IMG/VR virus record: IMGVR_UViG_3300037465_000306
Span: 1 to 25,449 of that record
Source: a virus
Lineage: Duplodnaviria; Caudoviricetes
Length of the DNA stretch: 25,449 bases
Strand: one strand, 5' to 3'
Part shown: positions 424-25,288 of the stretch, piece by piece
How the letters are laid out: each line of letters begins with the position of its first letter
Position numbering within the stretch: the stretch's first letter is position 1
The notes under the pieces: model-generated
Database searches by the model: none
Told to the model about the DNA's origin: nothing
Seen by the model: only the letters and a program-made list of their open reading frames with translations
Translations under genes and position numbers: made by a program

Positions 424-453
424 ACCCCCGCCTCTATGGATGCGGGGTTTCTT
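424..453 (+). terminator. Intrinsic terminator built from an inverted pair of the CCCCGCHTC repeat
   Basis: CCCCGCCTC-tatg-GATGCGGGG followed by TTTCTT, just downstream of the ORF ending at 394. Confidence 0.75.
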
Positions 454-470
454 ATTTCCCAGAAAATATG

Positions 471-500
471 TTGACAATCATCTATACAATAAGGTACAAT
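471..500 (+). promoter_or_regulatory. Sigma70-type promoter for the helicase
   Basis: TTGACA (471-476), 18-nt spacer, TACAAT (495-500). The spacer contains ATCTATACAAT, shared with the polB promoter. Confidence 0.75.
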
Positions 501-553
501 TTAGATAAAGCGGAAAGAAACCGCTAGACCAAATTCTAAAAAACAAATAATAA

Positions 554-2236
554 GTGAGAAACAAAACCATGCAATCAACATCCAACCTAAACAAACCCGC
601 CTCTAATACCAGAATTATCGATCTGACCCCTGACAAAAAGATAAAAGTTAAGTTTGATTATGACAATGATATCTACAAAACCATCAAAGGTGTTCACGGG
701 GGTTACTTTGTCGCTGAGAATTCGCGTAACAAATACTGGCTATTTGGGTCTCAGTGTGTGGAAAAATTAATAGATGTACTGATTCCTTTTGGGTTTGAAA
801 TTACAGACGCGCTGGATCAGTATTTGGAAACCATTAGAGAAGAGAAGCGGTTAGCCAAGGAGAAAATAGAAAATCGAGTAGACTGGTGTTTCGAGCATCT
901 AGAATCTGAGTCCGAGGAATGGAACTTCACCCCCTATCTTCACCAATGGGAAACAATCAATTTCATCCTGAATCAGCCTAATTTATCTGCCATTATCAGC
1001 GATGATCCGGGATTGGGGAAAACATTATCTGCTTTGATATCTGCAAAAGCAATCCGAGACTTTTACAGATTTGAGTATGGAGAATTTTTGTCCATCATTG
1101 TCGTCTGTCCGGTTTCATTGAAACTCAATTGGTTGATAGAAGCGGAGAAAGTAAAGCTAAAACTAGAGATTTTTTCCCATGCCAAAACACCAAAAGCACC
1201 GATCAATAAAAAATACATACTGATCGCAGATGAGGCACATGTATATAAAAATCCCGCCTCAGCACGATCCAAAAAATTTCTAGAATTGGCTGCTGACCAT
1301 AATTGCGTAAGTGTTTTGGCGATGACAGCGACACCAATGCTGAACGGTAGACATGCGGAATTGTACCCATTACTCAAGGCTATCAAGCACCCTGTGGCGG
1401 ATTCTAAAAAGTATTACGATATACGATATTGCGACGCAAAACCCACCGCTTTTACAGCTTGGGATGTTACAGGATCAATCAATTCTGAGGAATTATCGGA
1501 ACGAATATCGGACAAGCTTATAAAGCACCGAAAAGAGGAATGTATCGATCTCCCAGAGAAAACAATTATTGATATTTTCTGTGAGCCGAATAAAGTGGCC
1601 GAAGATGAATACAATGAGAACATTGAGCAGCTTAAGCAAAGCTATTTGGAAAGAGCAAGCAAAGGTGAGGTTAGTTTACAGGCTGAGGCACTGGTCACGC
1701 TAGGTCACTTGCGCAGATCAGCCAGTATTTACAAGTCTTATCAAACTATAAATACTGTTCAATCAATGATTGATGCGGGGTTACCTGTCGTAGTCTTTGC
1801 AGAATTTAGGGAATCAGCAGATCGGATTGCTGCACACTTCAATGTAAAATCGCTCAATGGAGATACTAAATTAGAAGATCGGCAGCAAATGGTGGATGAT
1901 TTTCAATCAGGTAAAAATTTAGTTTTTGTTGGATCGATCGCTGCCGGTGGTGTGGGCATCACTTTAACACGAGCCAATTACTTGGTAATGAACGATTTTC
2001 CTTGGAATCCTGGACTATACACGCAAGCAACCGATCGTATTCACAGGATAGGACAAAATAAAAATTGTACAATCTACAATATTTTTGGAAAAGATATTGA
2101 TTACGTGATGGCCACCATCAATAATCAGAAATCAACCAATATTGACAGAGTCATTAACGAAAAAATCGGAGTTATCCCTGACAAGCTTGATAGCAAATTC
2201 TATCAACGACTAGTAGAAAAGTTACTGGATATCTGA
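554..2236 (+). CDS. SNF2/SWI2-family SF2 helicase-like ATPase
   Basis: Motif I DDPGLGKT, Ia VVCPVSLKLNW, II DEAH, III TATP, V AGGVGITLTRA, VI QATDRIHRIGQ. The start may be ATG 569. Confidence 0.93.
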   Translation: MRNKTMQSTSNLNKPASNTRIIDLTPDKKIKVKFDYDNDIYKTIKGVHGGYFVAENSRNKYWLFGSQCVEKLIDVLIPFGFEITDALDQYLETIREEKRLAKEKIENRVDWCFEHLESESEEWNFTPYLHQWETINFILNQPNLSAIISDDPGLGKTLSALISAKAIRDFYRFEYGEFLSIIVVCPVSLKLNWLIEAEKVKLKLEIFSHAKTPKAPINKKYILIADEAHVYKNPASARSKKFLELAADHNCVSVLAMTATPMLNGRHAELYPLLKAIKHPVADSKKYYDIRYCDAKPTAFTAWDVTGSINSEELSERISDKLIKHRKEECIDLPEKTIIDIFCEPNKVAEDEYNENIEQLKQSYLERASKGEVSLQAEALVTLGHLRRSASIYKSYQTINTVQSMIDAGLPVVVFAEFRESADRIAAHFNVKSLNGDTKLEDRQQMVDDFQSGKNLVFVGSIAAGGVGITLTRANYLVMNDFPWNPGLYTQATDRIHRIGQNKNCTIYNIFGKDIDYVMATINNQKSTNIDRVINEKIGVIPDKLDSKFYQRLVEKLLDI

Positions 2237-2333
2237 ATTTACAGCCCCCGCCTCTATCAAAAAGATGCGGGGGTGGGGATTCCGACCCAGGAATTTGGAT
2301 GAACTTACAGCCCCCGCCTCGGGGGTTTTTTTT
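2234..2333 (+). terminator. Tandem terminator hairpins within a 21-bp direct repeat
   Basis: TGAA(T/C)TTACAGCCCCCGCCTC at 2234-2254 and 2300-2320. Hairpins 2245-2273 and CCCCCG-cct-CGGGGG plus T8 (2311-2333). Confidence 0.7.
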
Positions 2334-2363
2334 CAGTCGGTAAAGCAGCTTTACTATATTATG

Positions 2364-2393
2364 TTGACAACTATCTATACAATCGTCTATGAT
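2364..2393 (+). promoter_or_regulatory. Sigma70-type promoter for polB
   Basis: TTGACA (2364-2369), 18-nt spacer, TATGAT (2388-2393). Confidence 0.75.
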
Positions 2394-2445
2394 ATAAACA
2401 GCATAACTGCTAAACCCATCTTTCTGATCAGATCCTAACCCCCAT

Positions 2446-4401
2446 ATGCTTACAAAACAATTGCAACAATTCAGAAGACTTGCAAAAGTTACTGACAAAA
2501 GTGTAACCATCAACGAGGACGATATAAATATTTATGAGTATGATGAAACATTCATACCTGAATGGAAACCTACAATTACATTAAAGCCATTAGAGCAAGT
2601 ATCTAAAATTTACTTGGATATCGAAACAACCGGATTAGATCCAGACTCAGACGAGGTTGTTTTGATAGGACTGATGAATGAGAAAGGTAGGATTCACATC
2701 ATAGATTGCAAATCCAATGGTGAATTGAGCGGACTCTTGACATTTTTAGAGATACTAGGAAAGAAAAAACCAGAAATATTGCTAACATTCAATGGCTTCA
2801 AATTTGACTTACCTTTTTTGATTAAAAGGATGCGATTACTAGGTATACCTAGTAATCAAATACCTTTTTATATCAATCACGAAAAGACAAAGACATTTAG
2901 AATCGCACAGCAATTTTCTGTACCAGTAGAATATAATGATATTTGGTTAAATAGAGGCGAAATAGCAATAATAGATCTATTTCATCAGACTCTAGCATGG
3001 GATTATGTCAATCATAAGTTAACTAGATACGGTTTGAAACATATACCCAACCAATTGAATTTGCCGGGATACGAGAATGATAAACCCATAGAATTATCAT
3101 ATCCTCAGATGCAGCAAGCGATCGCTAATTGGGATGTGAGATCGCCTACAAAGGGAGTGACTGGCAAAGAATTGCTAATAGAGTATCTAGAATCAGATTT
3201 AAAAGCCACAAAAGCAATAGGTGATTTTTTATTGCCTGATATCTACTATCAAAAATTAATTTTGCCTGATTGGAATTTACAATCATTAGCTAGTAGCGGA
3301 AATGGCTCAAAATGGAATGATATTCTAAAACAACACTACAACAGAAAGGGATCACCCCCGCCTCAAACATCACCTAAGTTAACATTTGTAGGCGGGCTGA
3401 CAGGTTCCAAACCTGGATTATTTAGAAATATTGCTAAGATCGATGTAGCCAGCCTTTATCCCTCTATTATGCTGCTATATGGGATTTGCTCTGATAAGGA
3501 CCCAGACAGACATTGTCTTTCCGTTTTACGATTTCTTAGAAATGAGAGATTAAGATTGAAAGCTATAGCTGAGGAGAAGAAAGGAACACCCGAAGGAATG
3601 CAGGCCAAACAGACTCAGGGTGCATTAAAGGTACTTATCAATAGCGGTTATGGATTCTTGTCAACTGGATTTATTGAATACAATGATTTTATTGCGGGGG
3701 CCGGAGTGACGGCACATGGTAGGGCGATTTTAAAGCGTATGATGTCGGCATTGGAAGAATGCGGTATGATAAATATTTCCATCGATACTGATGGGATTTA
3801 TTTCGCATCCGATGATCCTACTTTTGCTAAAAATAAAGCCGCTTGGCAATATTGCCAATCTAAAATGCCAAAATCAATAATCCTAGAATATGAATTAGAA
3901 GCACTTGCCATGTATTGCCCACCCAATGAGAATGATTCAGAAAAGGGATTGCGCAAAAATTACGTTTATGCCTATTTTGATAAAAAGTCGAATGAGGTAA
4001 AAATTAAAGCAAAAGGCAAATTCATTAAGCGTGATAAATGTCATTTAGAGCGATCATTTATCCCTGAGTTAATTAAACACTATTTAGAGGGAAAACATGA
4101 AGCATACTACAAGGAAATACTATCTCAACTTTTAATGGGAATTTACCCAGTAGAAAAATTAGCCGTAAATCGCAAAATCAAGGCTAATGAGTCTAGAATT
4201 GTGGAATTGGGATTAGGCAAACCGGGGGATGTAGTAACCATCTACAAAGAGCGTGATAAAGTTTTGTATGGCAAGCGTGGTCAAGTGTTGAAAAAAAAAG
4301 AAATAATGTGGACTGATGACCCTAGTCGTATCGATTGGAGCTATTATGTGAAAGTGGTACAGTCCATGTGGGATCAATTTGAGAAATGCCCTAAATATTA
4401 G
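2446..4401 (+). CDS. polB: Family B DNA polymerase with 3'-5' exonuclease domain
   Basis: ExoI DIETTG, ExoII FNGFKFDLPFL, ExoIII YLESD, motif A DVASLYPS, motif B KVLINSGYG, motif C IDTDG. Confidence 0.95.
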   Translation: MLTKQLQQFRRLAKVTDKSVTINEDDINIYEYDETFIPEWKPTITLKPLEQVSKIYLDIETTGLDPDSDEVVLIGLMNEKGRIHIIDCKSNGELSGLLTFLEILGKKKPEILLTFNGFKFDLPFLIKRMRLLGIPSNQIPFYINHEKTKTFRIAQQFSVPVEYNDIWLNRGEIAIIDLFHQTLAWDYVNHKLTRYGLKHIPNQLNLPGYENDKPIELSYPQMQQAIANWDVRSPTKGVTGKELLIEYLESDLKATKAIGDFLLPDIYYQKLILPDWNLQSLASSGNGSKWNDILKQHYNRKGSPPPQTSPKLTFVGGLTGSKPGLFRNIAKIDVASLYPSIMLLYGICSDKDPDRHCLSVLRFLRNERLRLKAIAEEKKGTPEGMQAKQTQGALKVLINSGYGFLSTGFIEYNDFIAGAGVTAHGRAILKRMMSALEECGMINISIDTDGIYFASDDPTFAKNKAAWQYCQSKMPKSIILEYELEALAMYCPPNENDSEKGLRKNYVYAYFDKKSNEVKIKAKGKFIKRDKCHLERSFIPELIKHYLEGKHEAYYKEILSQLLMGIYPVEKLAVNRKIKANESRIVELGLGKPGDVVTIYKERDKVLYGKRGQVLKKKEIMWTDDPSRIDWSYYVKVVQSMWDQFEKCPKY

Positions 4402-4420
4402 TTAGTAAAGCAGCTTTACC

Positions 4421-4455
4421 AAAACCCCCGCCTCTAAACAGAAGCGGGGGTTTTT
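4421..4455. terminator. Intrinsic terminator, potentially bidirectional
   Basis: AAAACCCCCGCCTCT-aaac-AGAAGCGGGGGTTTTT after the polB stop. Confidence 0.85.
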
Positions 4456-4468
4456 GATAAATACGTAG

Positions 4469-4510
4469 GGCGTGTAAATGGTTGACAATTGGCGTGTAAA
4501 CGGTTAACCT
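4469..4510 (+). promoter_or_regulatory. Promoter of tnpB overlapped by an 18-bp direct repeat
   Basis: TTGACA (4482-4487), 17-nt spacer, TAACCT (4505-4510). GGCGTGTAAATGGTTGAC (4469-4486) and GGCGTGTAAACGGTTAAC (4491-4508). Confidence 0.6.
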
Positions 4511-4541
4511 TATATTATCTGCTCCATTTCTTAACGTAAAC

Positions 4542-5729
4542 ATGAAAGCTAGGTATAAGTACAGATTCTATCCAACAGACCAACAACAACAGAGTTTAGC
4601 TCAGTTGTTTGGGTGTGTTCGGGTTGTCTGGAATGATGCCCTGGCTATTTGTAAGCGCTCTGAAAAGTTGCCCAGTAACAATGACTTGCAAAAGTTGGTG
4701 ATTACACAAGCCAAAAAGACTGATGAGCGTTCATGGTTGTCTGGTGTTTCTTCAGTGCCATTACAGCAGTCTGTCGCTGATTTAGGAGTTGCCTATAAAA
4801 ACTTTTTCGATTCACTTAAAGGTAAGCGCAAGGGCAAAAAGGTCGGTAGTCCTAAATTCAAAAAGAAGACGCAAAGGCAATCAGCACGATTTACAATTAA
4901 TGGATTTTCAATCAAAGGAGAAGAAGTATATCTAGCCAAAATTGGTAATGTTAAGCCTATTTGGTCGAGAGAATTACCATCTGCGCCAAGTAGCGTAACT
5001 GTTATCAAAGATTGTGCTCACCGCTATTTTCTCAGCTTTGTTGTAGAAGTTCAACCCAATACTACCGTTGCCAAAAACCAAAGCATAGGTATTGATTTGG
5101 GAATCAAAACTTTTGCAGTTATGAGCAATGGGGAGAAAGCAATAAGCCCTAATTACTCAAAGAAAGACCGCAAAATTCGCAAACTACAACGTAAGCTAGC
5201 AAGGCAACAGAAAGGTTCTAAACGTCGTGAAGTCACCAGATTAAAGATTGCTAAGCAACATAACAAAATCGCAGATACCCGAAAAGATTTCCTGCACAAG
5301 TTGTCAACCAGAATAATTAACGATAACCAAGTAATTGTTTTGGAAGACTTGAATGTATCAGGAATGTTAAAAAACCGCAGGCTATCTAGGTTGATTAGTT
5401 TGCAGGGATGGCGAGAATTCCGGGTATTGTGTGAAGCTAAATCAGAAAAATTTAACCGGGATTTCAGAGTAATTAGTAGATGGGAACCTACTAGCCAAAC
5501 TTGTTCTTGCTGTGGGTATCGTTGGGGCAAGATTGATTTGTCTGTTCGCTCAATACGTTGCTTAAGTTGCGGTAATAAACACGATAGGGATGAGAATGCG
5601 TCCCTAAATATAGAAATGGTCGGCATGGGGCATCGGCACGACCTTAAACGGACGGGGAGCGACAGTAAGACTACTTCGGTAGCAAGTTGCTGTGAGCCGT
5701 CAAGAATCACCGACGTTCAACGTCGGTGA
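4542..5729 (+). CDS. tnpB: IS200/IS605-family RNA-guided endonuclease TnpB; RuvC triad intact; no tnpA
   Basis: N-terminal KARYKYRFYP...FGCVRVVWN, RuvC-I GIDLG, RuvC-II LEDLNV, Zn ribbon TSQTCSCCG...CLSCG, RuvC-III DRDENASLNI. Confidence 0.96.
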   Translation: MKARYKYRFYPTDQQQQSLAQLFGCVRVVWNDALAICKRSEKLPSNNDLQKLVITQAKKTDERSWLSGVSSVPLQQSVADLGVAYKNFFDSLKGKRKGKKVGSPKFKKKTQRQSARFTINGFSIKGEEVYLAKIGNVKPIWSRELPSAPSSVTVIKDCAHRYFLSFVVEVQPNTTVAKNQSIGIDLGIKTFAVMSNGEKAISPNYSKKDRKIRKLQRKLARQQKGSKRREVTRLKIAKQHNKIADTRKDFLHKLSTRIINDNQVIVLEDLNVSGMLKNRRLSRLISLQGWREFRVLCEAKSEKFNRDFRVISRWEPTSQTCSCCGYRWGKIDLSVRSIRCLSCGNKHDRDENASLNIEMVGMGHRHDLKRTGSDSKTTSVASCCEPSRITDVQRR

Positions 5730-5758
5730 GTATGTCAACAGAAAAACCCCCGCCTCTG
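5600..5758 (+). ncRNA. Predicted TnpB omega/reRNA: scaffold overlapping the tnpB 3' end, IS right end at TCAA (5735-5738), guide from 5739
   Basis: Subterminal hairpin TCACCGACGTT-c-AACGTCGGTGA (5707-5729) then GTATGTCAA, the usual IS605-group right-end layout. The 5' boundary is only an estimate. Confidence 0.65.
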
Positions 5759-5774
5759 TTTGGAAGCGGGGGTT
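5742..5774. terminator. Terminator between convergent tnpB and dcd
   Basis: AAAAACCCCCGCCTCT-gttt-GGAAGCGGGGGTT; the A5 run gives a U-tract on the minus strand. Confidence 0.75.
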
Positions 5775-5829
5775 GTAACGTGGCTAGGTTGTACTGCAAA
5801 GTCGCTACCAAAATATCAAGGGAACGTAA

Positions 5830-6375
5830 TTACATTCCCATGATATCCTCTGTGTAAACCGTAGATGCACCCAAATCTCCACAGCTGGAGGGCAATACGC
5901 TGCTGGCATCCTGATATTTGCCATTGTAGGGCGTTTCAGGTGTGGTGGTATTCATGATAATTAATTGGCCAATTCTTAAACCTGGATATATAGGCACACT
6001 ACGCATGATTGAATTATTTTTTAGCTCCAGCGTAATTATTCCTCTATATCCATTATCAATCCAGCCTGCCAAAGCATGATTCAATCCTTCTCTAGCACGG
6101 CTGGATTTAAGCTTTAATTCTGCTGCATAGAAGATGGGCAAGTTGATACGCTCCAGAGTACCAACTAAAATACAATCATTTGGTAATATATAGTACGGAT
6201 CATTTTTCGTATGATATTTGAAATTGGGATAATCCGTAAATCCATGTTTAGTATCTACCATCGCGGATATGCCGATCCTTACGTCAATGCTACTAGGGTT
6301 TAGTAGTTCTTCATCAAAAGGATCTATTAATCCATTTTTACAGGCGTTTCTAATTTGCCAATCTACTAAAATCAT
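5830..6375 (-). CDS. dcd: dCTP deaminase (trimeric dUTPase superfamily)
   Basis: MILVDWQI...LNPSSIDVRIG, TLERINLP, KSSRAREGL, AGWIDNGYRGIITLEL, YPGLRIGQL, YNGKYQ. Confidence 0.92.
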   Translation of the reverse strand: MILVDWQIRNACKNGLIDPFDEELLNPSSIDVRIGISAMVDTKHGFTDYPNFKYHTKNDPYYILPNDCILVGTLERINLPIFYAAELKLKSSRAREGLNHALAGWIDNGYRGIITLELKNNSIMRSVPIYPGLRIGQLIIMNTTTPETPYNGKYQDASSVLPSSCGDLGASTVYTEDIMGM

Positions 6376-6402
6376 GATTTACCCCATCTTTCTGATAAAA
6401 AT

Positions 6403-6648
6403 TTACCACAATTCAGTGGGTTCCGCAAATCTTTCGTCAATTTCAGTACGTAGATACACCAATAAATCCATTAATTCTTGATAGCTATCTATCAGATTGT
6501 TTCTACCGTTGTTAGGTTGCAGAGCTGTGCCGTACTTAATCATCCCAAAATTTTTTCGATCGGACAGATCTCTGATCACCGCATCAATTGAATGAGGATG
6601 ATTGTTTCTTAGAGGCGGGGGTTGAGGTTCTACAAGAGGGTTGATCAT
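6403..6648 (-). CDS. Small conserved phage protein, possibly all-alpha NTP pyrophosphohydrolase-like
   Basis: R..FG..KYGT.L...NGR..L.D.YQELMDLLVYL pattern recalled from phage proteins; sits next to dcd. Function is inference. Confidence 0.55.
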   Translation of the reverse strand: MINPLVEPQPPPLRNNHPHSIDAVIRDLSDRKNFGMIKYGTALQPNNGRNNLIDSYQELMDLLVYLRTEIDERFAEPTELW

Positions 6649-6670
6649 TAATAATAAAGCAGCTTAACCG

Positions 6671-7216
6671 TTATACTGCTGGCGGATCGATGACTGATTT
6701 AACACCGGCAAATAGATTATTACCACCAATTGATAGAAGGTAGTTTCTGGGATCGTAAACCATGGCAAAACTAGTACCTAATTTAATCTCTAGATAGTAG
6801 CACATCATTGATATTTCAGCTTCTAATCCATCCTCTGATAGATCGCCGAAAGGAAGACTTGAAATAAACCCCTTACAAATGAATTGATAAGCTTTATTAG
6901 TATTATCATCCTCCTCGATACAAGCGGTGGCAATTAGAGTTACAGTTCTGCTAGTTCCTGTTACTAGTGCTTTTAATAAATCATCGAAAACTCCTCTAAT
7001 TGTAAAGCTAACTTCTATCTCATTAAAAAACTTCGGCCGGGGGACTATGCCCAATTCGCCGGCGCGTTTGGCGGTGTCAAATTCCTGCTCTAAAATTGGG
7101 CTGGAAAGATCAGTGATGATACCTTTTAAATTGGCTGATATATCATTGTCGGTACCGGATGTATCGTATTCTAATTTTGCATTCCAATGAGTGATCTCAA
7201 ATAGTGAAATTGCCAT
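6671..7216 (-). CDS. Tail tube protein (P2 FII-like, contractile type)
   Basis: 181 aa, beta-rich; the 'RAGELG..PRPKFFNEIEVSFTI' and 'EAEISMMCYYLEI...YDPRNY...IGGNNL' pattern resembles Phage_tube; located in the structural operon. Confidence 0.7.
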   Translation of the reverse strand: MAISLFEITHWNAKLEYDTSGTDNDISANLKGIITDLSSPILEQEFDTAKRAGELGIVPRPKFFNEIEVSFTIRGVFDDLLKALVTGTSRTVTLIATACIEEDDNTNKAYQFICKGFISSLPFGDLSEDGLEAEISMMCYYLEIKLGTSFAMVYDPRNYLLSIGGNNLFAGVKSVIDPPAV

Positions 7217-7248
7217 AATAACCCCGCCTCAATCAACAAATAAACTAC

Positions 7249-7701
7249 CTACTGGGGACTTCCCGCAAGGGATGTTAAACACTGTTCAGTGTCGCTACCT
7301 TCAAACTTTAAATAAAAAGGTACAAGAAAAGTCAGAAGCGATCGCCATTTACCAGATTCAGGTGTGAAATTTTCAAATGATTGTAAAACCATCGTTCCGC
7401 ACCCTTTCAATTTTCTACGGTGTAGTTTGTAAATAATACCAAATACTACAGAATCCAAACTACGCTTTTGATCACTAGTTAGATAATTATTCTCATCATC
7501 ATCATTATATCTAAGGGGTGAAGCGACAGAAATATTAACAGATAAATTGAGATAATTACCCTCAACAGAACCATTAACAATAGCAAAAGTTAGCTCTGAT
7601 TGTTCAAAAATCCCATTAAGATTGGGTATATTTGGTAAATCTTTTACTTCAAAATCTTCTAATAGTATTTTGATTTGATCTGATACATCAGTGAAACTCA
7701 T
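7249..7701 (-). CDS. Putative tail terminator/completion protein (Mu gp37-like)
   Basis: 150 aa acidic protein between the Mu-G-like gene and the tube; call is mostly from synteny. Confidence 0.45.
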   Translation of the reverse strand: MSFTDVSDQIKILLEDFEVKDLPNIPNLNGIFEQSELTFAIVNGSVEGNYLNLSVNISVASPLRYNDDDENNYLTSDQKRSLDSVVFGIIYKLHRRKLKGCGTMVLQSFENFTPESGKWRSLLTFLVPFYLKFEGSDTEQCLTSLAGSPQ

Positions 7702-8144
7702 TTTTTTCTTTGACTTCTAAGTGATTTAACTCGCCTGATTTGTGCGATAATAAAATTATTCAACTTTTTGCGCCTATCATTTGGTATTCCTATCACCACC
7801 CTGGCTGGCATTTTACTAGTTCCGAAATGATGGAATTGATATTTAGGATCTTTGATACCAAATTCAAAATTAGTTTTAGTAGCTTTGTAGTAAAAGGCGT
7901 TAAACATGAAAAAAGTTTCGCGTAGTTTAAATGATGTTTTCTTCCTAGCTAATGTAGATGGCTTCAGAGGTTCCCAAGGTCTACCTTCCGGGTCAATTTC
8001 TTTTTGAAATTGTGTATTAGTTTCTTTTTTAATGTAATTACCAAAATCTCTGAATGCAGGCTCCAAATTACTAGTAGATTGTTTCAAATCTTTCATAAAA
8101 GACTTAAAACTTTTAGCATCTACTGATGCGGTTGGTTGTGTCAT
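7698..8144 (-). CDS. Virion morphogenesis protein (Mu gpG / P2 gpS-like)
   Basis: FQKEIDPEGRPWEPLKPST...KYQFHHFGT..MPARVVIG signature. Start at 8144 (MTQPT) preferred over 8195 because it reduces overlap with the upstream gene. Confidence 0.85.
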   Translation of the reverse strand: MTQPTASVDAKSFKSFMKDLKQSTSNLEPAFRDFGNYIKKETNTQFQKEIDPEGRPWEPLKPSTLARKKTSFKLRETFFMFNAFYYKATKTNFEFGIKDPKYQFHHFGTSKMPARVVIGIPNDRRKKLNNFIIAQIRRVKSLRSQRKK

Positions 8145-8487
8145 TATTACTATTATTGAATTCTGATACCGAGACATAAGAGAAGTGTATTGCATCTCCT
8201 AGGATATTTTGCAATCCTGCTATTCGTGATTGGATTTTAGGTTCCACAGTTAGGACGGCTTTCAATCCATTTATAGTACCATGCAATACCGTCCCTGGAA
8301 CCAGCCAACTAGGAGATGCGGGTGGATCAACCAACCGACCAAAACAAAAACCCTTAGAATCATTCCGCAATAAATCGGCTAAATATCTTCCGCTCTGATC
8401 CTTCAATGTACAAGTGATCCTATTTTTGCCATCACTTGTTAGTAGTTCGGATTTGATGAAAATAGGATCACTATATACAGTATTCAT
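8113..8487 (-). CDS. Hypothetical structural protein, possibly head closure
   Basis: Co-oriented 124-aa ORF in the head-to-tail part of the operon; no motif recognised. Confidence 0.5.
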   Translation of the reverse strand: MNTVYSDPIFIKSELLTSDGKNRITCTLKDQSGRYLADLLRNDSKGFCFGRLVDPPASPSWLVPGTVLHGTINGLKAVLTVEPKIQSRIAGLQNILGDAIHFSYVSVSEFNNSNNDTTNRISRC

Positions 8488-8550
8488 TGTTAGTTGTCTT
8501 TTGGAAGCGGGGGTGTGGTTTTTCTCAGTCGGTAAAGCTGCTTTACTATA

Positions 8551-8796
8551 CTAGATTTTGGGGGTTTTTTTACTCGTCGCCCCCGCATCAGAATCAGGAG
8601 TTTCGATGACAATTATTTCGCCAGATTCTATTGCTATTCGTAAATCTTCGTACTTACACTTAAGCCATTCAAGCTGATCGGGTGTTATACTAACAGAAGA
8701 TTCATTGCTATTTAATTCTATGGATCCTTTAGGAGTACCATAGACTAATTTAGGGGATGCTTGAGCCGATCGCGGTCTGTAAATTAAATTAGGCAT
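8551..8796 (-). CDS. Small hypothetical protein downstream of the capsid gene
   Basis: ATG 8796 (MPNLIY) lies 7 nt after the capsid stop; about 81 aa. Confidence 0.55.
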   Translation of the reverse strand: MPNLIYRPRSAQASPKLVYGTPKGSIELNSNESSVSITPDQLEWLKCKYEDLRIAIESGEIIVIETPDSDAGATSKKTPKI

Positions 8797-8803
8797 GTTT
8801 GAT

Positions 8804-11362: not shown

Positions 11363-11379
11363 AAGTTTTATTTATCAGA

Positions 11380-16860: not shown

Positions 16861-18265
16861 AGGTTTGATAATAAATATGGGTGATTTAGTTAAAAAAAAT
16901 TTAAATAGAAGACAAGAGACAAATATAGATCTTATTGATGAGACTTTTTGGCAAGGAACACCCATTTTTTGCCCATATCAAAATATACTAGTTACTGATG
17001 AATCATTAGTCTCAATTGTTGAGAAAGGGCGACAAATTGGGGCATCTTTTTCTTATGCTTTTAGGGCATCTTTTAGAGCAATTTGTAATCAAAGAGATAG
17101 TATTATAACCAGTTATAACAAAGCAGCCGTTAAGCAATTTATCAAAGATGCGGCATATTGGGCCAGAACATTTAATACTATATTTGAAATTATTTCTTAT
17201 CAGGAAGTAGTCAATGAGAGAGACTTAAACATATTTGAAATTAGATTTTTAAACGGAAGAACTATTACGGGTTTAGCCGGGGATGCAGTTAACCTCAGGT
17301 CATATTCTGGTAGGGATATCTATATTGATGAGGCGGCTTATCGTGCTGATTCATTGGATGATATTCTAGCTGCTGGTTTAGCGGCGATTATCCACGGTGG
17401 TACTATCAGGATACTTTCGACTCATGCGGGTATTGATAGCGACTTCAATCAGTTAATAGAAAGTGTAAAAGCGGGTAATCTGCCATACACACATCATAGA
17501 GTTAGTTTCAAGCAAGCTGTTAGAGAGGGATTATTTAAGCGGGTTTGTGCAAAGAAAAAGGATATATGGTCAATAGAAAAAGAAGAAGAATGGGTTGACG
17601 GTATCTACAAAATGTATGGAAATCGCGCTAGTGAAGAATTGGATGCGGAGCCAAGCGATTATAGCCAAGGGGGAAAAATATTTAAGGATTTCCAATTTAT
17701 TGATACTAGCGATCTATCACCCTGGCAATACATTGAATTTAGATATCACGATCTAGCCGCATCCGATGACGACGATGATAAAAATGATAGTCTGTACTAT
17801 TCTGCATCAGTCAAAATTAGATATATTCTGAGCACCAATAAAATGTCCATCATTGATTGGACAGCTGAAAAATTATCACCATTAGAAGGTGATGCACAAA
17901 TTGAAAGATTAGCACTTGCTGATGGTTCTAGATCGGTGCAATTGATTGAATTAGAGCCTGGATCAACTGGTGAGAAATATGTAGCAATCATGCAAGATAG
18001 GCTAATCAAAAAAGGTATTTTTCAGGTATTTGGATATAGGCCTTCTATAGATAAAGTCAAACGCGCTATTCCAGCAGGGAATGCCATGTGTGCAGGTGAT
18101 TTGATGATTGAGGCGGGGATGAGAGATCGTGATCAATTTTGCAAATTAATTACTAAATTTTCTAATAAAAGGCAACCGTTGGTAACGGATTTGGGAGACT
18201 GTATAAGTGGTATTTATGATTATGTGACAAATGAATATAATTGGCTACTTAGTAGTAATGGTTAA
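16853..18265 (+). CDS. terL: Terminase large subunit
   Basis: PYQ adenine-binding motif, Walker A EKGRQIGAS, Walker B IYIDEAA, motif III LST, nuclease RYHDLAA and D..D near the C-terminus. Confidence 0.92.
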   Translation: MLKGLIINMGDLVKKNLNRRQETNIDLIDETFWQGTPIFCPYQNILVTDESLVSIVEKGRQIGASFSYAFRASFRAICNQRDSIITSYNKAAVKQFIKDAAYWARTFNTIFEIISYQEVVNERDLNIFEIRFLNGRTITGLAGDAVNLRSYSGRDIYIDEAAYRADSLDDILAAGLAAIIHGGTIRILSTHAGIDSDFNQLIESVKAGNLPYTHHRVSFKQAVREGLFKRVCAKKKDIWSIEKEEEWVDGIYKMYGNRASEELDAEPSDYSQGGKIFKDFQFIDTSDLSPWQYIEFRYHDLAASDDDDDKNDSLYYSASVKIRYILSTNKMSIIDWTAEKLSPLEGDAQIERLALADGSRSVQLIELEPGSTGEKYVAIMQDRLIKKGIFQVFGYRPSIDKVKRAIPAGNAMCAGDLMIEAGMRDRDQFCKLITKFSNKRQPLVTDLGDCISGIYDYVTNEYNWLLSSNG

Positions 18266-18294
18266 GCTGCTTTACTAGAGAAGAGATTCATCCA

Positions 18295-18636
18295 ATGGTG
18301 ATAATCGATCTAATTAATGATAATTCAATTGAGATAGGTGCTAATTATGAAGCATCTTTCAAATTATGTAATGCGCCTGATTTATCAGATGGGTATTCCG
18401 GATACTGTCAAATCCGAACCAATAACCAATCAAATCTAGTAATTCTATCGCCTAGAGTTAATATAGTGAGCAAAGATTTATTCACTATATCAATTGCTTT
18501 CAATGATTATCCAGTTGATATTATCGCAGGAAATTATCAATATGATGTCTTGTTTGCTAGCAGTACGACGGGTAATAGATTTTATGCTGTAGGAGGGAAA
18601 ATTCAGATAATAAAGAGAATAACTACAATAACCTAA
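18295..18636 (+). CDS. Small beta-rich virion protein (BppU N-terminal-like)
   Basis: 'IEIGA......DLSDGY....QIR.....GNYQYDV.....GKIQI...IT' pattern; the family call is tentative. Confidence 0.5.
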   Translation: MVIIDLINDNSIEIGANYEASFKLCNAPDLSDGYSGYCQIRTNNQSNLVILSPRVNIVSKDLFTISIAFNDYPVDIIAGNYQYDVLFASSTTGNRFYAVGGKIQIIKRITTIT

Positions 18637-18655
18637 CACTCTCCCAGGAATTTGG

Positions 18656-19117
18656 ATGACAATTACTGAATCATTTAGTGCGAATCTGCTAGAAAACAAA
18701 AAATCTGCTGAATTATTATGCGAATGTAAATCAGCAGAATTAGTTAAAGTCTTTGTAATCAATAATAACAATGGGAATCAGGGCGATCAACTAATATGGG
18801 TTACACAAATTAACAACTCAATCATCATTTTCAACCATGGGTACGATTGCAGGAATGATATAAGCAGAATAATCCTATCCCTGCCTACACAAATCCCATT
18901 AGATGGGAGTGTATTAGCATTTAAAAATAGTGGTATTGCCGGTTTCAGAATTCAGCAATCTGATATGAACCATAGAATCAGGTTAGGCAACACGACAACT
19001 ACTCTAGGTGTGGCGGGTGCAATCAACTCTTATGATTTAGGTGATTATCTCAAAATTGAATACATTATTGATGAATGGGTAGCAACTGAAATAATAGGTA
19101 ATCTAGAGGTTTTATGA
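18656..19117 (+). CDS. Fibre-associated protein, paralogous to the C-terminal domain of the next gene
   Basis: NHGY...LSLP...G.RIQQ...I.LG.TTT.G..G.I aligns by eye with DNGY...LTLP...GWRISQ...IHYLGTSTTAG..G.I of 19114..20205. Confidence 0.6.
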   Translation: MTITESFSANLLENKKSAELLCECKSAELVKVFVINNNNGNQGDQLIWVTQINNSIIIFNHGYDCRNDISRIILSLPTQIPLDGSVLAFKNSGIAGFRIQQSDMNHRIRLGNTTTTLGVAGAINSYDLGDYLKIEYIIDEWVATEIIGNLEVL

Positions 19118-20205
19118 CGTTTCAAAATAGCTGGAATAATACGTTAGTTGGTAATATTAAGACCGTTCTAGGTTCCGATGCTCAAGGGGATATTTATTAC
19201 AGAAACTCATCGGGAAACTTAGATAGATTGGGTATAGGATTATCAGGTCAAGCCCTACTTAGCTCTGGAACAATCCCAACATGGGGGAATCCCACGCCGG
19301 GTGGCAATGCGGGTGGTGATTTAGCGGGTACCTACCCAAATCCAACGATCGCCCTAAATACTGTAACTTTTGCAAAAATGCAAAATATCAGTAGTGGATT
19401 TCTATTAGGTCGTAATACTGCTGGTACGGGTTCCATTGAGGCGGTGGATTCCTCAACAGTTAGAAGTATACTAGGTTTGGGTAGCGCTGCTTTATTAAAC
19501 ACGGGATCATCAGTAGGTGACATACCTGTATTACAAAGCGGGGGTGTGCTTGATCCTTCTATCATTCCTAATATCGCTATTACTAGCATTCAAGTAGTAG
19601 CTGATCAAGCAGCTAGGTTAGGATTAATCGATGTTCAAGTAGGTGACATAGCGAAACAAACTGATAATGGGATCAGTTACATTCTGTCAGCCACCCCCGC
19701 CTCAACGGATTCTAACTGGATATCGATCGGTGATACCAGTATTGATGCATCAGAAATTGTATCAGGTATAATTGCACCTTCTAGATTGGGTAGTGGTACT
19801 GCTAGTTCATCATCCTACTTACGTGGTGATGGTGTGTGGTCAAGTGTTTCGGGTGGCTCCTCTTTTACCTGGAATAATGTAACAGGCACTACACAAGCAA
19901 TGTCGGCCGATAACGGGTATATTACAAATAATGCTGCTTTAGTAACTTTAACCTTACCAAGTACGGCAGCATTAGGAACAATTATAAAAGTTGCTGGCTT
20001 TGGGGCTGGTGGCTGGAGAATATCTCAAAATGCTTCACAGCAGATACATTATTTAGGGACATCGACAACAGCAGGTACAAGCGGAAGAATTGACGCGGAA
20101 TTAACTAATACAAATTCTTCTAAAGCTTCTCTAGAATTATTATGTGTTGTTGAAAATACTACATGGGTTGTGATAAATGGTGTAGGTACTGTTGATATAG
20201 TCTAG
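19114..20205 (+). CDS. Tail or head fibre protein
   Basis: G/S/T-rich; AGGDLAGTYPNPT, VTFAKMQN, LGLGSAA, RLGSGTASSSSYLRGDG.W fibre motifs. Confidence 0.8.
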   Translation: MTFQNSWNNTLVGNIKTVLGSDAQGDIYYRNSSGNLDRLGIGLSGQALLSSGTIPTWGNPTPGGNAGGDLAGTYPNPTIALNTVTFAKMQNISSGFLLGRNTAGTGSIEAVDSSTVRSILGLGSAALLNTGSSVGDIPVLQSGGVLDPSIIPNIAITSIQVVADQAARLGLIDVQVGDIAKQTDNGISYILSATPASTDSNWISIGDTSIDASEIVSGIIAPSRLGSGTASSSSYLRGDGVWSSVSGGSSFTWNNVTGTTQAMSADNGYITNNAALVTLTLPSTAALGTIIKVAGFGAGGWRISQNASQQIHYLGTSTTAGTSGRIDAELTNTNSSKASLELLCVVENTTWVVINGVGTVDIV

Positions 20206-20224: not shown

Positions 20225-21217
20225 ATGAGTACACAAAATCCATCTGGCGATAGCGATAAAATCATCCTAATTAATGATATTGGTATAAAAACTGAGATTA
20301 TACCATCAGCAACAGAAAATCGTAGCCTATCTTTGCCTGATAAAGATGGCGTATTAGCTGTAACTTCAGATTATTTTACACCACAAACCATTGTATACAC
20401 TACACCCGGATCGTATACGTACACCATACCTAATGATGCTAATTATATACGTATGATTGTTATAGGTGGTGGTGGAGGTGGTGGAAGCGGGAGGAGGGGC
20501 GCAGTCTCAACCAGCCGAACTGGTGGGGGTGGTGGTGGAGGTGGTGGAGTGACCGACATCACCTATAGAAATATTGATATCCCTGGTTTTAATCTTAGTA
20601 TTACTGTCGGTGGAGGTGGTATAGGCGGGGCTGCGGTAAGTACTAATGATTCCAATGGAAATGGTGGCACTGCTGGTGGTAGTAGTCAAATCGTAGATAC
20701 TTCCTCTAGTAGAATTCTAGCTTTTGCTAGTGGTGGTGGGGGTGGAGGTGGTGGTACCGGATCAACTGGCGGATCAGCGGGATCCCCAGGTAATATAGCA
20801 ACTTATCCGGGATCTACTGGTGGACCTGGCGGTACTTCTGGCGGGACTGGTGGATCATATTCTAATATGAGTTGCGGCTCTGGTGGAGGCGGCGGGGCCG
20901 TGACTTCTTCCAACAACACAAATAGCGGGGGTGGAGGCGGTAAGGGTGGTTACGCTTATCAGGGAGGTTCCACAGTTGGGGGTGGTGGTGGAGGTACAGG
21001 GGCCGGGGGCGGCACTTTCGCCACCGTATATAATCCACCTATGCCTGGATCTGGTGGTGGTGGTGGTGGATCTAGCATATCTGCTAATAGTGGGAGTGGT
21101 GGAAATGGATCCTCACCTGGAGGAGGTGGTGGGGGTGGAGGTGCTGTCTTGAATGGATTTACAGCTAGTAAGGGTGGTAATGGTGGTACGGGTGCTGTAT
21201 ATATTTACGTTTGGTAA
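20225..21217 (+). CDS. Glycine-rich virion protein 1 (putative adhesin)
   Basis: TPGSYTYTIP...IGGGGGGGSG...ITVGGGG.GG...GGNGGTGAVYIYVW; start ATG 20225 preferred. Confidence 0.8.
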   Translation: MSTQNPSGDSDKIILINDIGIKTEIIPSATENRSLSLPDKDGVLAVTSDYFTPQTIVYTTPGSYTYTIPNDANYIRMIVIGGGGGGGSGRRGAVSTSRTGGGGGGGGGVTDITYRNIDIPGFNLSITVGGGGIGGAAVSTNDSNGNGGTAGGSSQIVDTSSSRILAFASGGGGGGGGTGSTGGSAGSPGNIATYPGSTGGPGGTSGGTGGSYSNMSCGSGGGGGAVTSSNNTNSGGGGGKGGYAYQGGSTVGGGGGGTGAGGGTFATVYNPPMPGSGGGGGGSSISANSGSGGNGSSPGGGGGGGGAVLNGFTASKGGNGGTGAVYIYVW

Positions 21218-21226: not shown

Positions 21227-22261
21227 ATGGCTTATCAAAATCCTAGAGGGGATAGAAAAGATAAAATAAAAATCCTTGGTAATTCTATCAGTACTGATAT
21301 TAATACTGAAATTTTGCCAACGGCAACAGCTAATAGAACTATTACTACACCCAATAAAAACGGTGATCTCTTACTGAATGACGATATTTACACCCCCGCC
21401 TCTGAAACATTTCTATTGCCAGGTACATACAACTACACGATACCTGATGGCGCAAAATTAATTAGATTTATTTGCATAGGCGGTGGTGGAGGTGGTGGAA
21501 GTGGTAGGAAAGGTGCCACCTCTACAGTTCGTGGAGGGGGAGGCGGGGGCGCAGGAGGGAATATCACAGATCTAATATATAGAGTTGCAGATATTCCAAC
21601 CAAAGATTTAATAGTAACAGTCGGTGAAGGTGGTGCAGGCGGGGCCGCGGTAAGTACTATCGATACCAATGGAAATAATGGCACCATCGGCGGATCAAGC
21701 ACAATTATGGAATCCTCGACTAGTAGAATTTTAGCGATCGCCTCTGGTGGAAATGGTGGTAATTACGGCAACAACTCTAATGGTGGGGCCACAACTATTT
21801 TGAATACCTTAGGGTTGACTTATGCAGGTGGTAGCGGCGCTTCTGGCGGAGGATTTACAAACAATGCTGCTAATGGTGGCGCGACGGCCATGGGTACGGG
21901 TGGAGGTGGAGGTGGAGGTGGAATGTCCGCCGGTAACGTTTCACGTTTGCCGGGAAATGGGGGTAAGGGTGGGGTAAGTTATCAAGGTAGTAGTAGTAGT
22001 ATAACTGGCGGTTTGGCCGGGACCAACGGTACCACTGGTACTAATGGTAGTTCATTCACTATAGTTTATGGGCCGCCTATACCAGGCTCTGGTGGTGGAG
22101 GTGGTGGGAATGGTAACGGCGGTAGCGGCGGTAGCGGCGGGGATGGTACTTCACCTGGGGGTGGTGGTGGTGGAGGCGGGTCATGCTCAAATGATGAAGG
22201 TGCTATCGCCAATAAGGGTGGTGATGGTGCTGGGGGTGCTGTGTATATCTATACTTGGTGA
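21227..22261 (+). CDS. Glycine-rich virion protein 2, paralog of the previous gene
   Basis: Same architecture; ends GGDGAGGAVYIYTW. Confidence 0.8.
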   Translation: MAYQNPRGDRKDKIKILGNSISTDINTEILPTATANRTITTPNKNGDLLLNDDIYTPASETFLLPGTYNYTIPDGAKLIRFICIGGGGGGGSGRKGATSTVRGGGGGGAGGNITDLIYRVADIPTKDLIVTVGEGGAGGAAVSTIDTNGNNGTIGGSSTIMESSTSRILAIASGGNGGNYGNNSNGGATTILNTLGLTYAGGSGASGGGFTNNAANGGATAMGTGGGGGGGGMSAGNVSRLPGNGGKGGVSYQGSSSSITGGLAGTNGTTGTNGSSFTIVYGPPIPGSGGGGGGNGNGGSGGSGGDGTSPGGGGGGGGSCSNDEGAIANKGGDGAGGAVYIYTW

Positions 22262-22626: not shown

Positions 22627-24035
22627 TGATGACTGATGTACAATTTGATGTGAATAATTACGATGCTTCAGGCTTAATGCAGATCATGTCCCTGATGGCA
22701 AATAAAGCGGGAAGAATTGCGGATGATGATGGGTCTAATAAAACATTAACCGATCTGCAAATAGATGAGTTGTACGAAAATTCTAAATTAATTCAAAAAA
22801 TCATTAATAAGTATCCCGAAGAATTTAAAACATTAGGATATGAAATCAGAAATAGTTCTGGCGAATTAATAGAAAAAGATAACGATGTATTATTAGAATC
22901 TTTTAAAGATGCTTTAATTTCTAGTCGTTTGTATGGTCGTTCGTTCCTTAAATTAGAATTTGATGATTTTAATGATACAAAAATATTGAAGCGGGGTTCA
23001 AAACTGATAGGATATTCCCTACACTACGATCTCCACCAAGTAGGCGATTTTTTCAATATAGAATCGAAGCCCGTTCATTTTTCTCGTGTTATTGAATTTA
23101 TAGGTGTCAAAACCTATAAAAAGCACATCAAGAAAAATGACCCCAATTACTGTAGATCTGTTCTTCAATCGCTTTATGTGAGTTTCAGTAACTTCATTGA
23201 TAATAATTACAATGCTAAATATCTGCTAAATAATCTCTCATATTTAACTATAGGTATTGAAAATTTAGGAAATATGCAGATTAGTGACGAAGGTAAACGT
23301 ATTGTATTTGATCGCTTAACTGCTTTAAATATTAATAGAAGCATAAGCCGAATTATGGCCTATGATAAATCAAAAGAAGCGATAGGCTTCATCAGTCAGA
23401 CCTTAACAGGGGTTAATGATTTAGTTGAACAATCAAAATCAATATTAGCTAGTGAGTCTGATTATCCTGTATCAGAAATATTTGAAACTAATCAAAGTCA
23501 GGCTTTAGGTACTGGTATACAAAATCAGTTAGTGGCGCGTTATTTGTGGGCTAGGCGTGTTAGAAATTGGTCCATCAACAATGCGCTACCATATTTAAAA
23601 ATATATTTCAATCGCACCAGAGATATGAGTGAATTGGAAATATGGATTCCATTTATAGTTGATCTTACAGATGAGGAAAAGGCCGATATTGAAAAGAAAG
23701 CGGCGGATAGATCAAAAGTTTTAATTGATGCGGGTATCATATCGCCGGAAGAGGCCAGGAGTGGGTACAAAGGAGATATATTCACGCTAAATATCAAGCT
23801 AAATGATGCTGAATATCTAGCAAAAGACGATAAAGACGGTAAAGCTGCTTTACTGAAGGATATAAATAATGAGAAAAAGCTGAATCAAGAACAAAACACC
23901 CCCGCCTCTAACACTGACGCGGGGGCTGAAGTGATACCCGACGATAAATTCTGGGATGATTTAGCCACTATCACATCACACGATCTAGATTCGTTCGCCG
24001 AAAAAGTAATAAACGAGGCAGAAAGCGAAAGCTAG
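22626..24035 (+). CDS. Portal protein (DUF1073 family)
   Basis: 469 aa; LY....LIQKII.KYPEE, SRLYGRS, VHFSRV..F.G, SVLQ, LIDAGIISPEEAR; typically co-occurs with DUF2213 and DUF2184. Confidence 0.85.
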   Translation: MMTDVQFDVNNYDASGLMQIMSLMANKAGRIADDDGSNKTLTDLQIDELYENSKLIQKIINKYPEEFKTLGYEIRNSSGELIEKDNDVLLESFKDALISSRLYGRSFLKLEFDDFNDTKILKRGSKLIGYSLHYDLHQVGDFFNIESKPVHFSRVIEFIGVKTYKKHIKKNDPNYCRSVLQSLYVSFSNFIDNNYNAKYLLNNLSYLTIGIENLGNMQISDEGKRIVFDRLTALNINRSISRIMAYDKSKEAIGFISQTLTGVNDLVEQSKSILASESDYPVSEIFETNQSQALGTGIQNQLVARYLWARRVRNWSINNALPYLKIYFNRTRDMSELEIWIPFIVDLTDEEKADIEKKAADRSKVLIDAGIISPEEARSGYKGDIFTLNIKLNDAEYLAKDDKDGKAALLKDINNEKKLNQEQNTPASNTDAGAEVIPDDKFWDDLATITSHDLDSFAEKVINEAESES

Positions 24036-24090
24036 GGAAAAGAAAAATAATATGTTATCATGGTTTCATTTCTTGGTCAGGAATTTTACC

Positions 24091-24318
24091 ATGTTTTACA
24101 ATCTGATTAGCGCATTGGAAGATTTCACCAATTCCGGAGATGAGTACGACTACGAGTTTCTGAAAAATTCACTATTGATGCTTAACGATGATCAATTGAA
24201 ATTGGTATCGGAATTGATTGAAAGCATGTTGGATCAACAATTGATTGATCCCATATACAAAATGCGATTTATCCAAATACGTGATCTTGCAAATTCATGT
24301 TTAGTAGGGCAAAACTAA
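24091..24318 (+). CDS. Small hypothetical protein
   Basis: Co-oriented ORF filling the gap; start 24091 or 24052. Confidence 0.45.
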   Translation: MFYNLISALEDFTNSGDEYDYEFLKNSLLMLNDDQLKLVSELIESMLDQQLIDPIYKMRFIQIRDLANSCLVGQN

Positions 24319-25007
24319 ATATAGATGGTGTATTACCATCACAAATCTACTACGATCCCACTCTAAAACGATATCGATACAAAGGAGGTGGCAAAAACCA
24401 ACCAATCAGAGGGACATTTCTAAGCAGATCAGACGCGCTCAAGCTCCAAAAAGATTATCTGATGGAAGCTAAGGCGCGTTTTCTTGCTCTGACCCCCCGC
24501 ATCATGGCAGGAGAAATTGGAGTCTACAAAGAAGCGGGGGAGCTATTGAAAAGCATCCATTTGAGCAATGCTGTACTGGCTGCCAATGGTATCGACAAAC
24601 TAATCGATAGGGATTTGGGAACAATAGGAAGTATATTAAAGAAACAATACTATTCGGGTAGAAGTGATGACGGAAAACCCTACGGATTGAGACATCTTTT
24701 TATTGAGGTTCAGAATGGATCAGTCAGTGCAGCACAGTTGAGAAATAGATTGTCGATGTATGCGGAGGCGGGGGAAATATCAGGTAGTGTGGTAAAGCAA
24801 AATCAAGCCTATTCACAGGGTCTGACAGCCATGAGAAGGATAGATTCCGGTGATGATGCTGAGTGTGAGGATTGCGCTAGATATGCAGCTGCTGGATGGC
24901 AACCCATAGGTAATTTGCCTATTCCTAAAACTCAATGCAAATGCAGATCGAATTGCAGATGTAGAGTTATCTACGCACGGCTTGAGGATGTAGCACTAGG
25001 TAGTTGA
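24297..25007 (+). CDS. Head morphogenesis / minor capsid protein (Mu F-like C-terminus)
   Basis: C-terminal ECEDC...GWQPIG.LP.P...CKCRSNCRC; follows the portal. Confidence 0.7.
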   Translation: MFSRAKLNIDGVLPSQIYYDPTLKRYRYKGGGKNQPIRGTFLSRSDALKLQKDYLMEAKARFLALTPRIMAGEIGVYKEAGELLKSIHLSNAVLAANGIDKLIDRDLGTIGSILKKQYYSGRSDDGKPYGLRHLFIEVQNGSVSAAQLRNRLSMYAEAGEISGSVVKQNQAYSQGLTAMRRIDSGDDAECEDCARYAAAGWQPIGNLPIPKTQCKCRSNCRCRVIYARLEDVALGS

Positions 25008-25020
25008 TGTGTGCTACAAT
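24989..25020 (+). promoter_or_regulatory. Promoter with an 8-bp inverted-repeat operator
   Basis: TGTAGCAC (24989-24996), 14 nt, GTGCTACA (25011-25018); extended -10 TGcTACAAT (25012-25020). Confidence 0.5.
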
Positions 25021-25039
25021 AGTGTTGATGATTGGTAAG

Positions 25040-25288
25040 ATGATCAACATTATGAACACCAAAAAACAAACAAATAAAAAGAGAAAAGACACGAGTTTAT
25101 CGAGAATCGACAAATACGTGTCTTTTTTCCGCAAAAACCCCGACAAAAAATACACCGTCAAAGAGATTTTCGATAAATTCCCATTTAACACAGACATGAA
25201 TCAAGTAAGACTAACTCTAGAAAAAGGAAAAATAAATGGCAAAGTGAAATCAACTATTACTGAGGCGGGGGTAACTTATCATCTGTAG
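25040..25288 (+). CDS. Small basic protein, possible winged-helix DNA-binding protein
   Basis: Lys-rich; 'FFRKNPDKKYTVKEI......QVRLTL...KINGKV......VTYHL' fits a wHTH layout. Start uncertain (25028, 25040 or 25052). Confidence 0.5.
   Translation: MINIMNTKKQTNKKRKDTSLSRIDKYVSFFRKNPDKKYTVKEIFDKFPFNTDMNQVRLTLEKGKINGKVKSTITEAGVTYHL

Follow-up and report, generated by a model that had tools for sequence, protein, structure and literature searches.

The asymmetric word CCCCGCHTC (H standing for A, C or T), which is iterated throughout a tailed-phage fragment from IMG/VR (record IMGVR_UViG_3300037465_000306), is probably the site that the archaeo-eukaryotic primase (AEP)-helicase encoded by the phage recognizes on the template when it starts lagging-strand (Okazaki) fragments. 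The stretch analysed here, henceforth the window, spans positions 1 to 25,449 of this record; its genes include those for head and tail proteins, a helicase and a DNA polymerase of family B (PolB), and it carries a TnpB element. The word, which by its own sequence is non-palindromic, has 37 matches in these 25,449 nucleotides (nt). The 19 copies on the plus strand start at 426, 2246, 2312, 3356, 4426, 5748, 7222, 8581, 9638, 10253, 12820, 13695, 15471, 15534, 15576, 19695, 21394, 23900 and 24495 (mean gap 1337 nt). The 18 on the minus strand lie at 439-447, 1772-1780, 2264-2272, 4441-4449, 5763-5771, 6612-6620, 8504-8512, 9758-9766, 10840-10848, 11597-11605, 13634-13642, 15972-15980, 18110-18118, 21540-21548, 22988-22996, 24531-24539, 24765-24773 and, as the last copy in the window, 25262-25270 (mean gap 1460 nt).

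These counts bear out a first-pass annotation, made from the letters alone, which had reported about 37 copies on both strands and inside genes in all six frames. In 100 dinucleotide shuffles of the window the word occurred 0.19 times on average and at most twice, which amounts to an approximately 200-fold enrichment; the annotation had based its estimate of about 0.1 copy on a GC content of about 35%, the measured value being 38.3%. The seventh base is C in 25 copies, A in six and T in six, with one additional G variant, and the copy at 21540, which falls within a poly-glycine stretch, may be a chance match. Nine shorter variants with three Cs (CCCGCHTC) were also detected, namely the five named earlier (plus strand, 596, 1253, 9015, 11669 and 15137) and four further ones on the minus strand (8315-8322, 20484-20491, 22173-22180 and 23727-23734). 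Genes (30 were used) hold 23 of the 37 copies, against a mean of 0.91 and a maximum of 5 in 500 synonymous-codon shuffles, the remaining 14 being intergenic. The in-gene copies occupy every reading frame (sense 3/3/5, antisense 8/3/1) and are read as TPAS, PP, PR, EAG, GG or KRG, just as the annotation had listed; likewise, one of two glycine-rich paralogs has YTPAS where the other has FTPQT. Given this spread over all six frames, selection on the encoded peptide can be ruled out as the cause of the word. A short local duplication at 15471-15600 adds copies of both this word and a second word described below; contigs from two other runs lack 42 nt here.

The host of the phage is likely a member of the Nostocales, since the closest relatives of its TnpB (85-89% identity) come from Nostoc, Fischerella, Trichormus and their kin, six copies of HIP1 (highly iterated palindrome 1, GCGATCGC) are present in the window, and its PolB shares 43-44% identity with the enzymes of Nostoc and Anabaena phages. 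The word is rare in such hosts. Four Nostocales-type genomes contain 77-96 copies of CCCCGCHTC per 5.7-7.6 Mb, and in 301 genomes of the host order the form CCCCGCCTC reached at most 199 copies in 5.1 Mb, or 39 per Mb, versus 982 per Mb in the window. The phage is therefore at least 25-fold denser in the word than any of these genomes, and a host repeat is ruled out. Together with the codon shuffles, the host counts uphold the earlier view of a phage-specific signal at the DNA level that is neither a peptide feature nor a host repeat.

Fragments of relatives at 94-96% identity share the word: one of 19 kb has 22 copies, one of 17 kb has 16 and one of 26 kb has 28. Other members of the phage group, which is marked by its PolB (approximately 50% identity to the window protein in genome G003, 43-44% in phages N-1, A-1 and YongM, hereafter N1, A1 and YongM, and 42% in provirus G009), each possess a word of their own. 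In G003 (55.8 kb with direct terminal repeats; terminase 69% identical) it is CCCCCGCTT, with 80 copies; in N1 it is CCCCGGAATCA; A1, YongM, Dfl-JY23 and Elbi have CCCCGGAGTCA; and G009 has CCCTGG, with 134 copies. All these words begin with a 5' C-run, are 6-11 nt long, and are near-invariant and lineage-specific; N1 and A1 share a common host, yet each carries its own word almost purely. Individual sites turn over: the relative G004 retains 18 of the 21 in-gene window sites, the word sites differing from it by 5.3% versus 7.0% overall, and the G003 word lies within 15 nt of 8 of 25 window sites. They also switch in concert, as the A1 word is found within 15 nt of 19 of 37 in-gene N1 sites, and in 16 of the 37 it is exactly aligned with a single base different. 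This combination of turnover and joint switching suggests a phage-encoded reader whose specificity drifts, and the mixed seventh base of the window word may represent a state of relaxed specificity. Beyond the group, 50 of the 53 kb of M8CRM-1, which has a distant PolB, contained no such word, and in the first 50 of 70 kb of N4 the word CTGGTTC was four-fold enriched and unevenly spaced. A metagenome scan with the PolB alignment retrieved two close fragments that are too short for word counts, and a scan with the hairpin pattern gave no new group member in 80 loci with flanks, among the matches listed.

The two strands carry the words in nearly equal numbers (40/40 in G003, 45/47 in N1, 46/44 in A1, 53/45 in YongM and 67/67 in G009). 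In these five records the per-strand gaps average 1.15-1.54 kb, with a coefficient of variation (CV) of 0.54-0.62 compared with about 0.97 for random placement; such evenness was reached in none of 4000 uniform simulations, and permutation of strand labels gave P values of at most 0.0003. The corresponding CV in the window is 0.64 (P 0.0075 and 0.0035). In the records tested with the core words, the strands taken together behave as independent series. Across six records only 19 same-strand gaps were shorter than 300 nt, against about 109 expected, whereas opposite-strand copies can adjoin. The annotation had left a list of functions open, among which this evidence favors a primase site and speaks against a site for a double-strand nucleoprotein or repressor, the evenness being strand-specific.

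Strands alternate along the genome without any polarized orientation, and orientation is unlinked to transcription, with sense and antisense copies in genes numbering 11/12 in the window and 26/31, 27/20, 27/25, 32/27 and 50/55 in five relatives. Repressor sites of the stoperator type keep one orientation relative to transcription and are mostly intergenic. Consequently, although the intergenic share of 14 of 37 copies exceeds the 5% of the window that is non-coding, a stoperator or promoter role is most improbable given the 23 copies within genes, the lack of orientation and the per-strand evenness; the operator role is also better suited by a palindromic word, distinct from this one, that sits at gene borders. 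Such a role had been proposed for motifs of N-1 and A-1 in the accessible part of Chenard et al. 2016 (PMC4916379), which counted motifs near gene starts, 43 of them in A-1 and 21 asymmetric ones, sharing an 11-bp core, in N-1. Judging by the 11-bp length alone, the 21 N-1 motifs are probably CCCCGGAATCA, and the text of three of its supplement files contained no match. The annotation had known of no description of the motif; for the window word we likewise found none (the 9-mer itself not having been searched as text), but for N-1 and A-1 these asymmetric motifs were on record. Literature searches on the N1 and A1 words in cyanophages returned no relevant paper, most subscription papers being outside our reach.

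The absence of polarity also bears on a loading site, comparable to FtsK-orienting polar sequences (KOPS) or TraB recognition sequences (TRS), for a membrane-anchored FtsK-like ATPase that would move phage DNA, for example between the cells of a filament. An ATPase of this kind, whose small, helical C-terminal domain is conserved, is indeed encoded in G003, G004, N1, A1 and YongM, and G009 has a P-loop ATPase of similar build. Nevertheless, closer homologs occur where there is no iterated asymmetric word, namely in CL131 (covered for its first 100 kb out of 112.8 kb) and in three stretches, each 38-41 kb long, of Nostocales plasmids (three of 15 plasmid records matched), and neither same-strand exclusion nor the footprint described below is predicted by such a site, which makes it very improbable. 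The single-sequence model of the ATPase had a predicted local distance difference test (pLDDT) score of 36 and was unusable. The module formed by this ATPase and small genes (L092 10849-13749; L088 10691-14685; L252 15320-18483) is common to the group phages, CL131 and Nostocales plasmids, and possibly functions in DNA transfer.

If the word is a priming site, then C should survive better 5' of it than 3', because the lagging template on the 5' side would be copied at once, whereas that on the 3' side would wait longest in single-stranded form. This prediction was derived ahead of the test. On the C-run strand, the synonymous C over T proportion in the 300 nt 5' of the word exceeded that in the 300 nt 3' of it by 0.030 (442 sites pooled from five records; z 6.2, reached in none of 3000 shifts), and the sign was identical in six records (z 1.8-4.8). 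No comparable signal was obtained with HIP1 (z 0.5), the second palindrome (z 1.2) or other C-runs (z 0.75). When random sites from the same genes served as the control, the pooled footprint held (z 2.2-3.8), being weaker for antisense sites. Strand-specific evenness, same-strand exclusion and the polar footprint agree, indirectly, with what would be expected of a primase site acting on single strands.

The footprint also helps in evaluating two further explanations. In the first, the word would be a strand-specific nicking or repair-entry site, with one-sided repair creating copies where none is near and leaving the C/T asymmetry behind. Repair-based models exist for HIP1, whose copies in N1, A1 and YongM likewise keep an even spacing; moreover, perfect copies of the word far exceed one-mismatch copies at most positions, and the conservation relative to G004 is only modest. 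Against this, one-mismatch words are not consistently below chance, HIP1 lacks the footprint, no candidate nickase tracks the word, and no methyltransferase was found among the 27 G003 open reading frames (ORFs), a part of its total, that were scanned in Pfam; N1 and A1 do encode methyltransferases. A self-limiting nick or repair site remains the main alternative, if an unlikely one. The second is an orientation-dependent site like Chi, which would stop a helicase-nuclease, start recombination and guard broken phage DNA from either side. The word is asymmetric with one G-rich strand and is placed evenly on each of both strands, the group encodes RusA-like resolvases, and the G-rich strand of the G003 word contains GAAGCGG, which we take to be the Chi of Staphylococcus aureus. 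Chi, however, is a word defined by the host, in which it is enriched and with whose phages it is shared; the present word is not enriched in hosts, and the different words of N1 and A1 in one host make a host enzyme an unlikely reader. A single-stranded tail of the G-rich strand would also shift G/A on the C-run strand, whereas the pooled G/A asymmetry at the word was nil (z -0.2). A Chi-like site is accordingly improbable.

A candidate for the protein that would read the word in priming comes from G003, which encodes P0001, an 841-residue protein whose structural model (pLDDT 83.9) matches AEP primase and superfamily 3 helicase structures in fold. Residues 215-347 of the model appear to resemble the zinc-ribbon domain of DnaG, with template modeling scores of 0.52-0.56 that are below the threshold for naming it. 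Primases with a putative template-reading domain are encoded in G003, N1, the A1 group and G009, the last of which has no match to P0001 and combines a different primase-polymerase with a different word. The N1 and A1 primases share their N-terminal 428 residues at 42.5% identity, along with nearly the same word, but differ in their helicase halves; the word therefore appears to follow the N-terminal part. We noted that the N1 primase-helicase (L095 31134-33872) looks chimeric, with an A1-like N-terminus and a G003-like helicase half. A profile of the primase gave seven weak partial matches in 401 cyanobacterial genomes.

Under the proposed mechanism, the strand reading 5'-CCCC-GCHTC-3' would be the single-stranded template, the 3' half of which would be read by the zinc-ribbon-like domain of the primase. 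A G-rich primer would be made opposite the C-run, and the phage PolB would elongate it across the 5' flank. If selection keeps one site per 1.1-1.5 kb on each strand, the word would be written into genes whatever the reading frame, surplus copies on the same strand would be redundant and decay, and the sites would follow as the specificity of the reader drifts. Comparable behavior is reported in the parts of the literature available to us: synthesis by NrSPol begins immediately 5' of its site (PMC8718748), the primers that GP55 produces on CCCAAC are poly(G) (PMC12205980), and the T7 primase picks sites 1-6 kb apart by means of the 3' flank (PMC12839067; PMC2910064). The per-strand spacing of 1.15-1.54 kb lies within the scale of Okazaki fragments, those of T7 being 1-6 kb (PMC12839067). 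Equal use of both strands would imply that every region is traversed by forks travelling either way. Invertible segments have been reported in the phage group (bioRxiv 10.64898/2026.02.14.705889 and PMC8297451, each seen in part), and we speculate that they help forks to do so. A non-coding stretch of G003 (L088 5886-6200), in which short GGAAAAACTTGGA-like units are arranged as an inverted repeat, has similar stretches elsewhere and is a possible origin.

Several observations weigh against the priming interpretation. The primase gene was found neither in the window nor in the fetched relatives at 94-96% identity, and searches for the window's own primase (alignments A2 and A4; P0002) returned only G003 or nothing; priming and binding at the word are putative, the assignment of the reader being carried over from G003, and PolB, the single-stranded DNA-binding (SSB)-like protein and other proteins of the shared module may be readers instead. 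No such word is present in S-LBS1, NrS-1 or Pan4, although all three encode primases. As positive controls, the 8-mer of NrS-1, which occurs once in its genome, and the T7 pentamers, which are randomly spaced, both failed, and T7 fragment size has been reported to be independent of site number (cited in the available portion of PMC12839067). Evenness alone is not diagnostic, since HIP1 is also even in N1 (L095/L099), A1 (L096/L100) and YongM (L007/L101), with a CV of 0.51-0.57 and gaps of 1.4-1.8 kb; it is unevenly spaced in CL131, G009 and the plasmid stretches, and G003 has no HIP1. Stricter definitions of the word lower the evenness signal, and with hairpin pairs removed the strand-label test still holds in G003, YongM and N1 but loses strength in the window (P 0.13), in A1 (0.07) and in Dfl-JY23 (0.08). 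The footprint of the window by itself is weak (z 2.0) and does not appear at the 16 sites lying deep within its genes (z -0.2), substitution rates between close relatives displayed no consistent asymmetry, and the pooled records are mutually related and hence do not constitute six independent tests.

Some copies have what look to be secondary uses; the first-pass annotation had pointed out both the terminators and the Shine-Dalgarno sequences. Inverted pairs that fold into hairpins are found at 426-447, downstream of the gene at 65-394 and preceding a T-rich tract (plus strand; -13.3 kcal/mol); at 2246-2272, after the helicase gene; at 4426-4449, after the PolB gene and to the left of the TnpB element (plus strand); and at 5748-5771, to the right of that element, a junction at which just one hairpin is present in the relative G001. 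The first two are likely terminators, as is the combination of the copy at 2312 with the following G-run and T tract (2246-2330, plus strand). Two plus-strand copies, at 7222-7230 and 15471-15479, supply from their G-rich strand a GAGG about 10 nt before the ATG at 7216 of the tail tube gene and about 7 nt before that at 15468 of the tape measure gene (both on the minus strand), which likely act as ribosome-binding sites.

The replication module of the window comprises a SNF2-type helicase (554-2236, plus strand), PolB (2446-4401, plus strand) and, cut by the contig start, the 3' end of a conserved gene (65-394, plus strand) with homologs of 408 residues in G004 and 466 in G003, for the product of which an SSB-like role is a guess. 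The TnpB element, which is host-like and of the IS605 family (4459-5739, ORF 4542-5729, plus strand), is preceded by TTGAT and ends in TCAA. It is missing from G001 and G004, and a motif hairpin flanks it on each side in the window versus the one in G001. An origin of the word from the ends of an insertion sequence is ruled out, as the element contains no copy and both G001 and G004 have the word without it. The second word, the near-palindromic AAGCWGCTT, has 14 copies between 401 and 23850, 11 of them at gene borders, and is a separate element, probably an operator. In G003 (L088 1014-19340) it often adjoins the TTGACA box of a repeated promoter-like element, and counterparts in the same role are TAGAGTSACTCTA in the A1 group and AAAGTSACTTT in G009; no such palindrome was among the top words of N1. 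Contigs of three runs compared with window positions 1-20000 revealed related strains, none of them decisive. In G009 we also noted a helicase with an intein (L108 7636-9600) and an ORF of at least 3204 codons (L105 1-9615).

Primase sites are themselves known; the word is real, and the mechanism likely but putative. Our searches of the literature, which left most subscription papers out of reach, found no long, near-invariant primase sites spaced evenly over both strands of a whole genome. We tentatively propose that priming here might constitute a private genome code, wherein a long primase word recurs at Okazaki spacing on both strands, such that the replisome copies its own DNA and ignores that of the host, approximately 90 sites are rewritten in step with the reading domain of the primase, and each site leaves a mutational sawtooth that maps the direction of replication. 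Were this the case, a primase with a long and strict site would dictate sequence across the genome, even within genes, and co-evolve with those sites. N-1 and A-1, both culturable phages that infect a model host, would then form a natural specificity pair separated by one base, the choice of active sites by a primase would become directly testable, the N-1 motifs called promoters or stoperators would be recast, and orthogonal, sequence-addressed replication tools would be suggested.

Among iterated words, the uptake sequences of Neisseria (DUS, DNA uptake sequence) and Haemophilus (USS, uptake signal sequence) resemble the present one in being asymmetric 9-10-mers that are independent of reading frame and paired, as inverted copies, in terminators. 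The annotation had drawn this parallel, but it fails at the host: DUS and USS saturate the host chromosome, whereas the window word is dense in the phage and rare in the 301 genomes of the host order. Mycobacteriophage stoperators, Chi and KOPS/TRS are also asymmetric iterated words read by one protein, KOPS/TRS with polarized orientation or clustering at one locus. All of these are oriented to a transcription or replication axis or owned by the host, whereas the word is unoriented and private to the phage. HIP1 shares with the word its iteration and its presence in genes in several frames, and is reported as selected and periodic in the available part of PMC5861425, but it is a palindrome, host-wide, methylated (PMC13756078, likewise seen in part) and devoid of a polar footprint. 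The N-1 and A-1 motifs of PMC4916379 belong to the same phage group, but the window word is a different sequence, and in the passages of that paper available to us in-gene copies, per-strand spacing and replication go unmentioned. The closest likeness in kind is with primase sites, namely 5'-(G/T)2GTC-3' of T7 gp4, 5'-TTTGGTTA-3' and GTG of the NrS-1 PrimPol and 5'-CCAAC-3' of phage 1706 GP55, which, from the sections of the literature accessible to us, are asymmetric and read on one strand; there the primer lies over the 5' part, specificity resides 3' and a zinc-binding domain is implicated, an arrangement that we propose for the word as well. It departs from them in its length of 6-11 nt across the group, its near-invariance, its even spacing on both strands and its lineage specificity, and its own role in priming is predicted.

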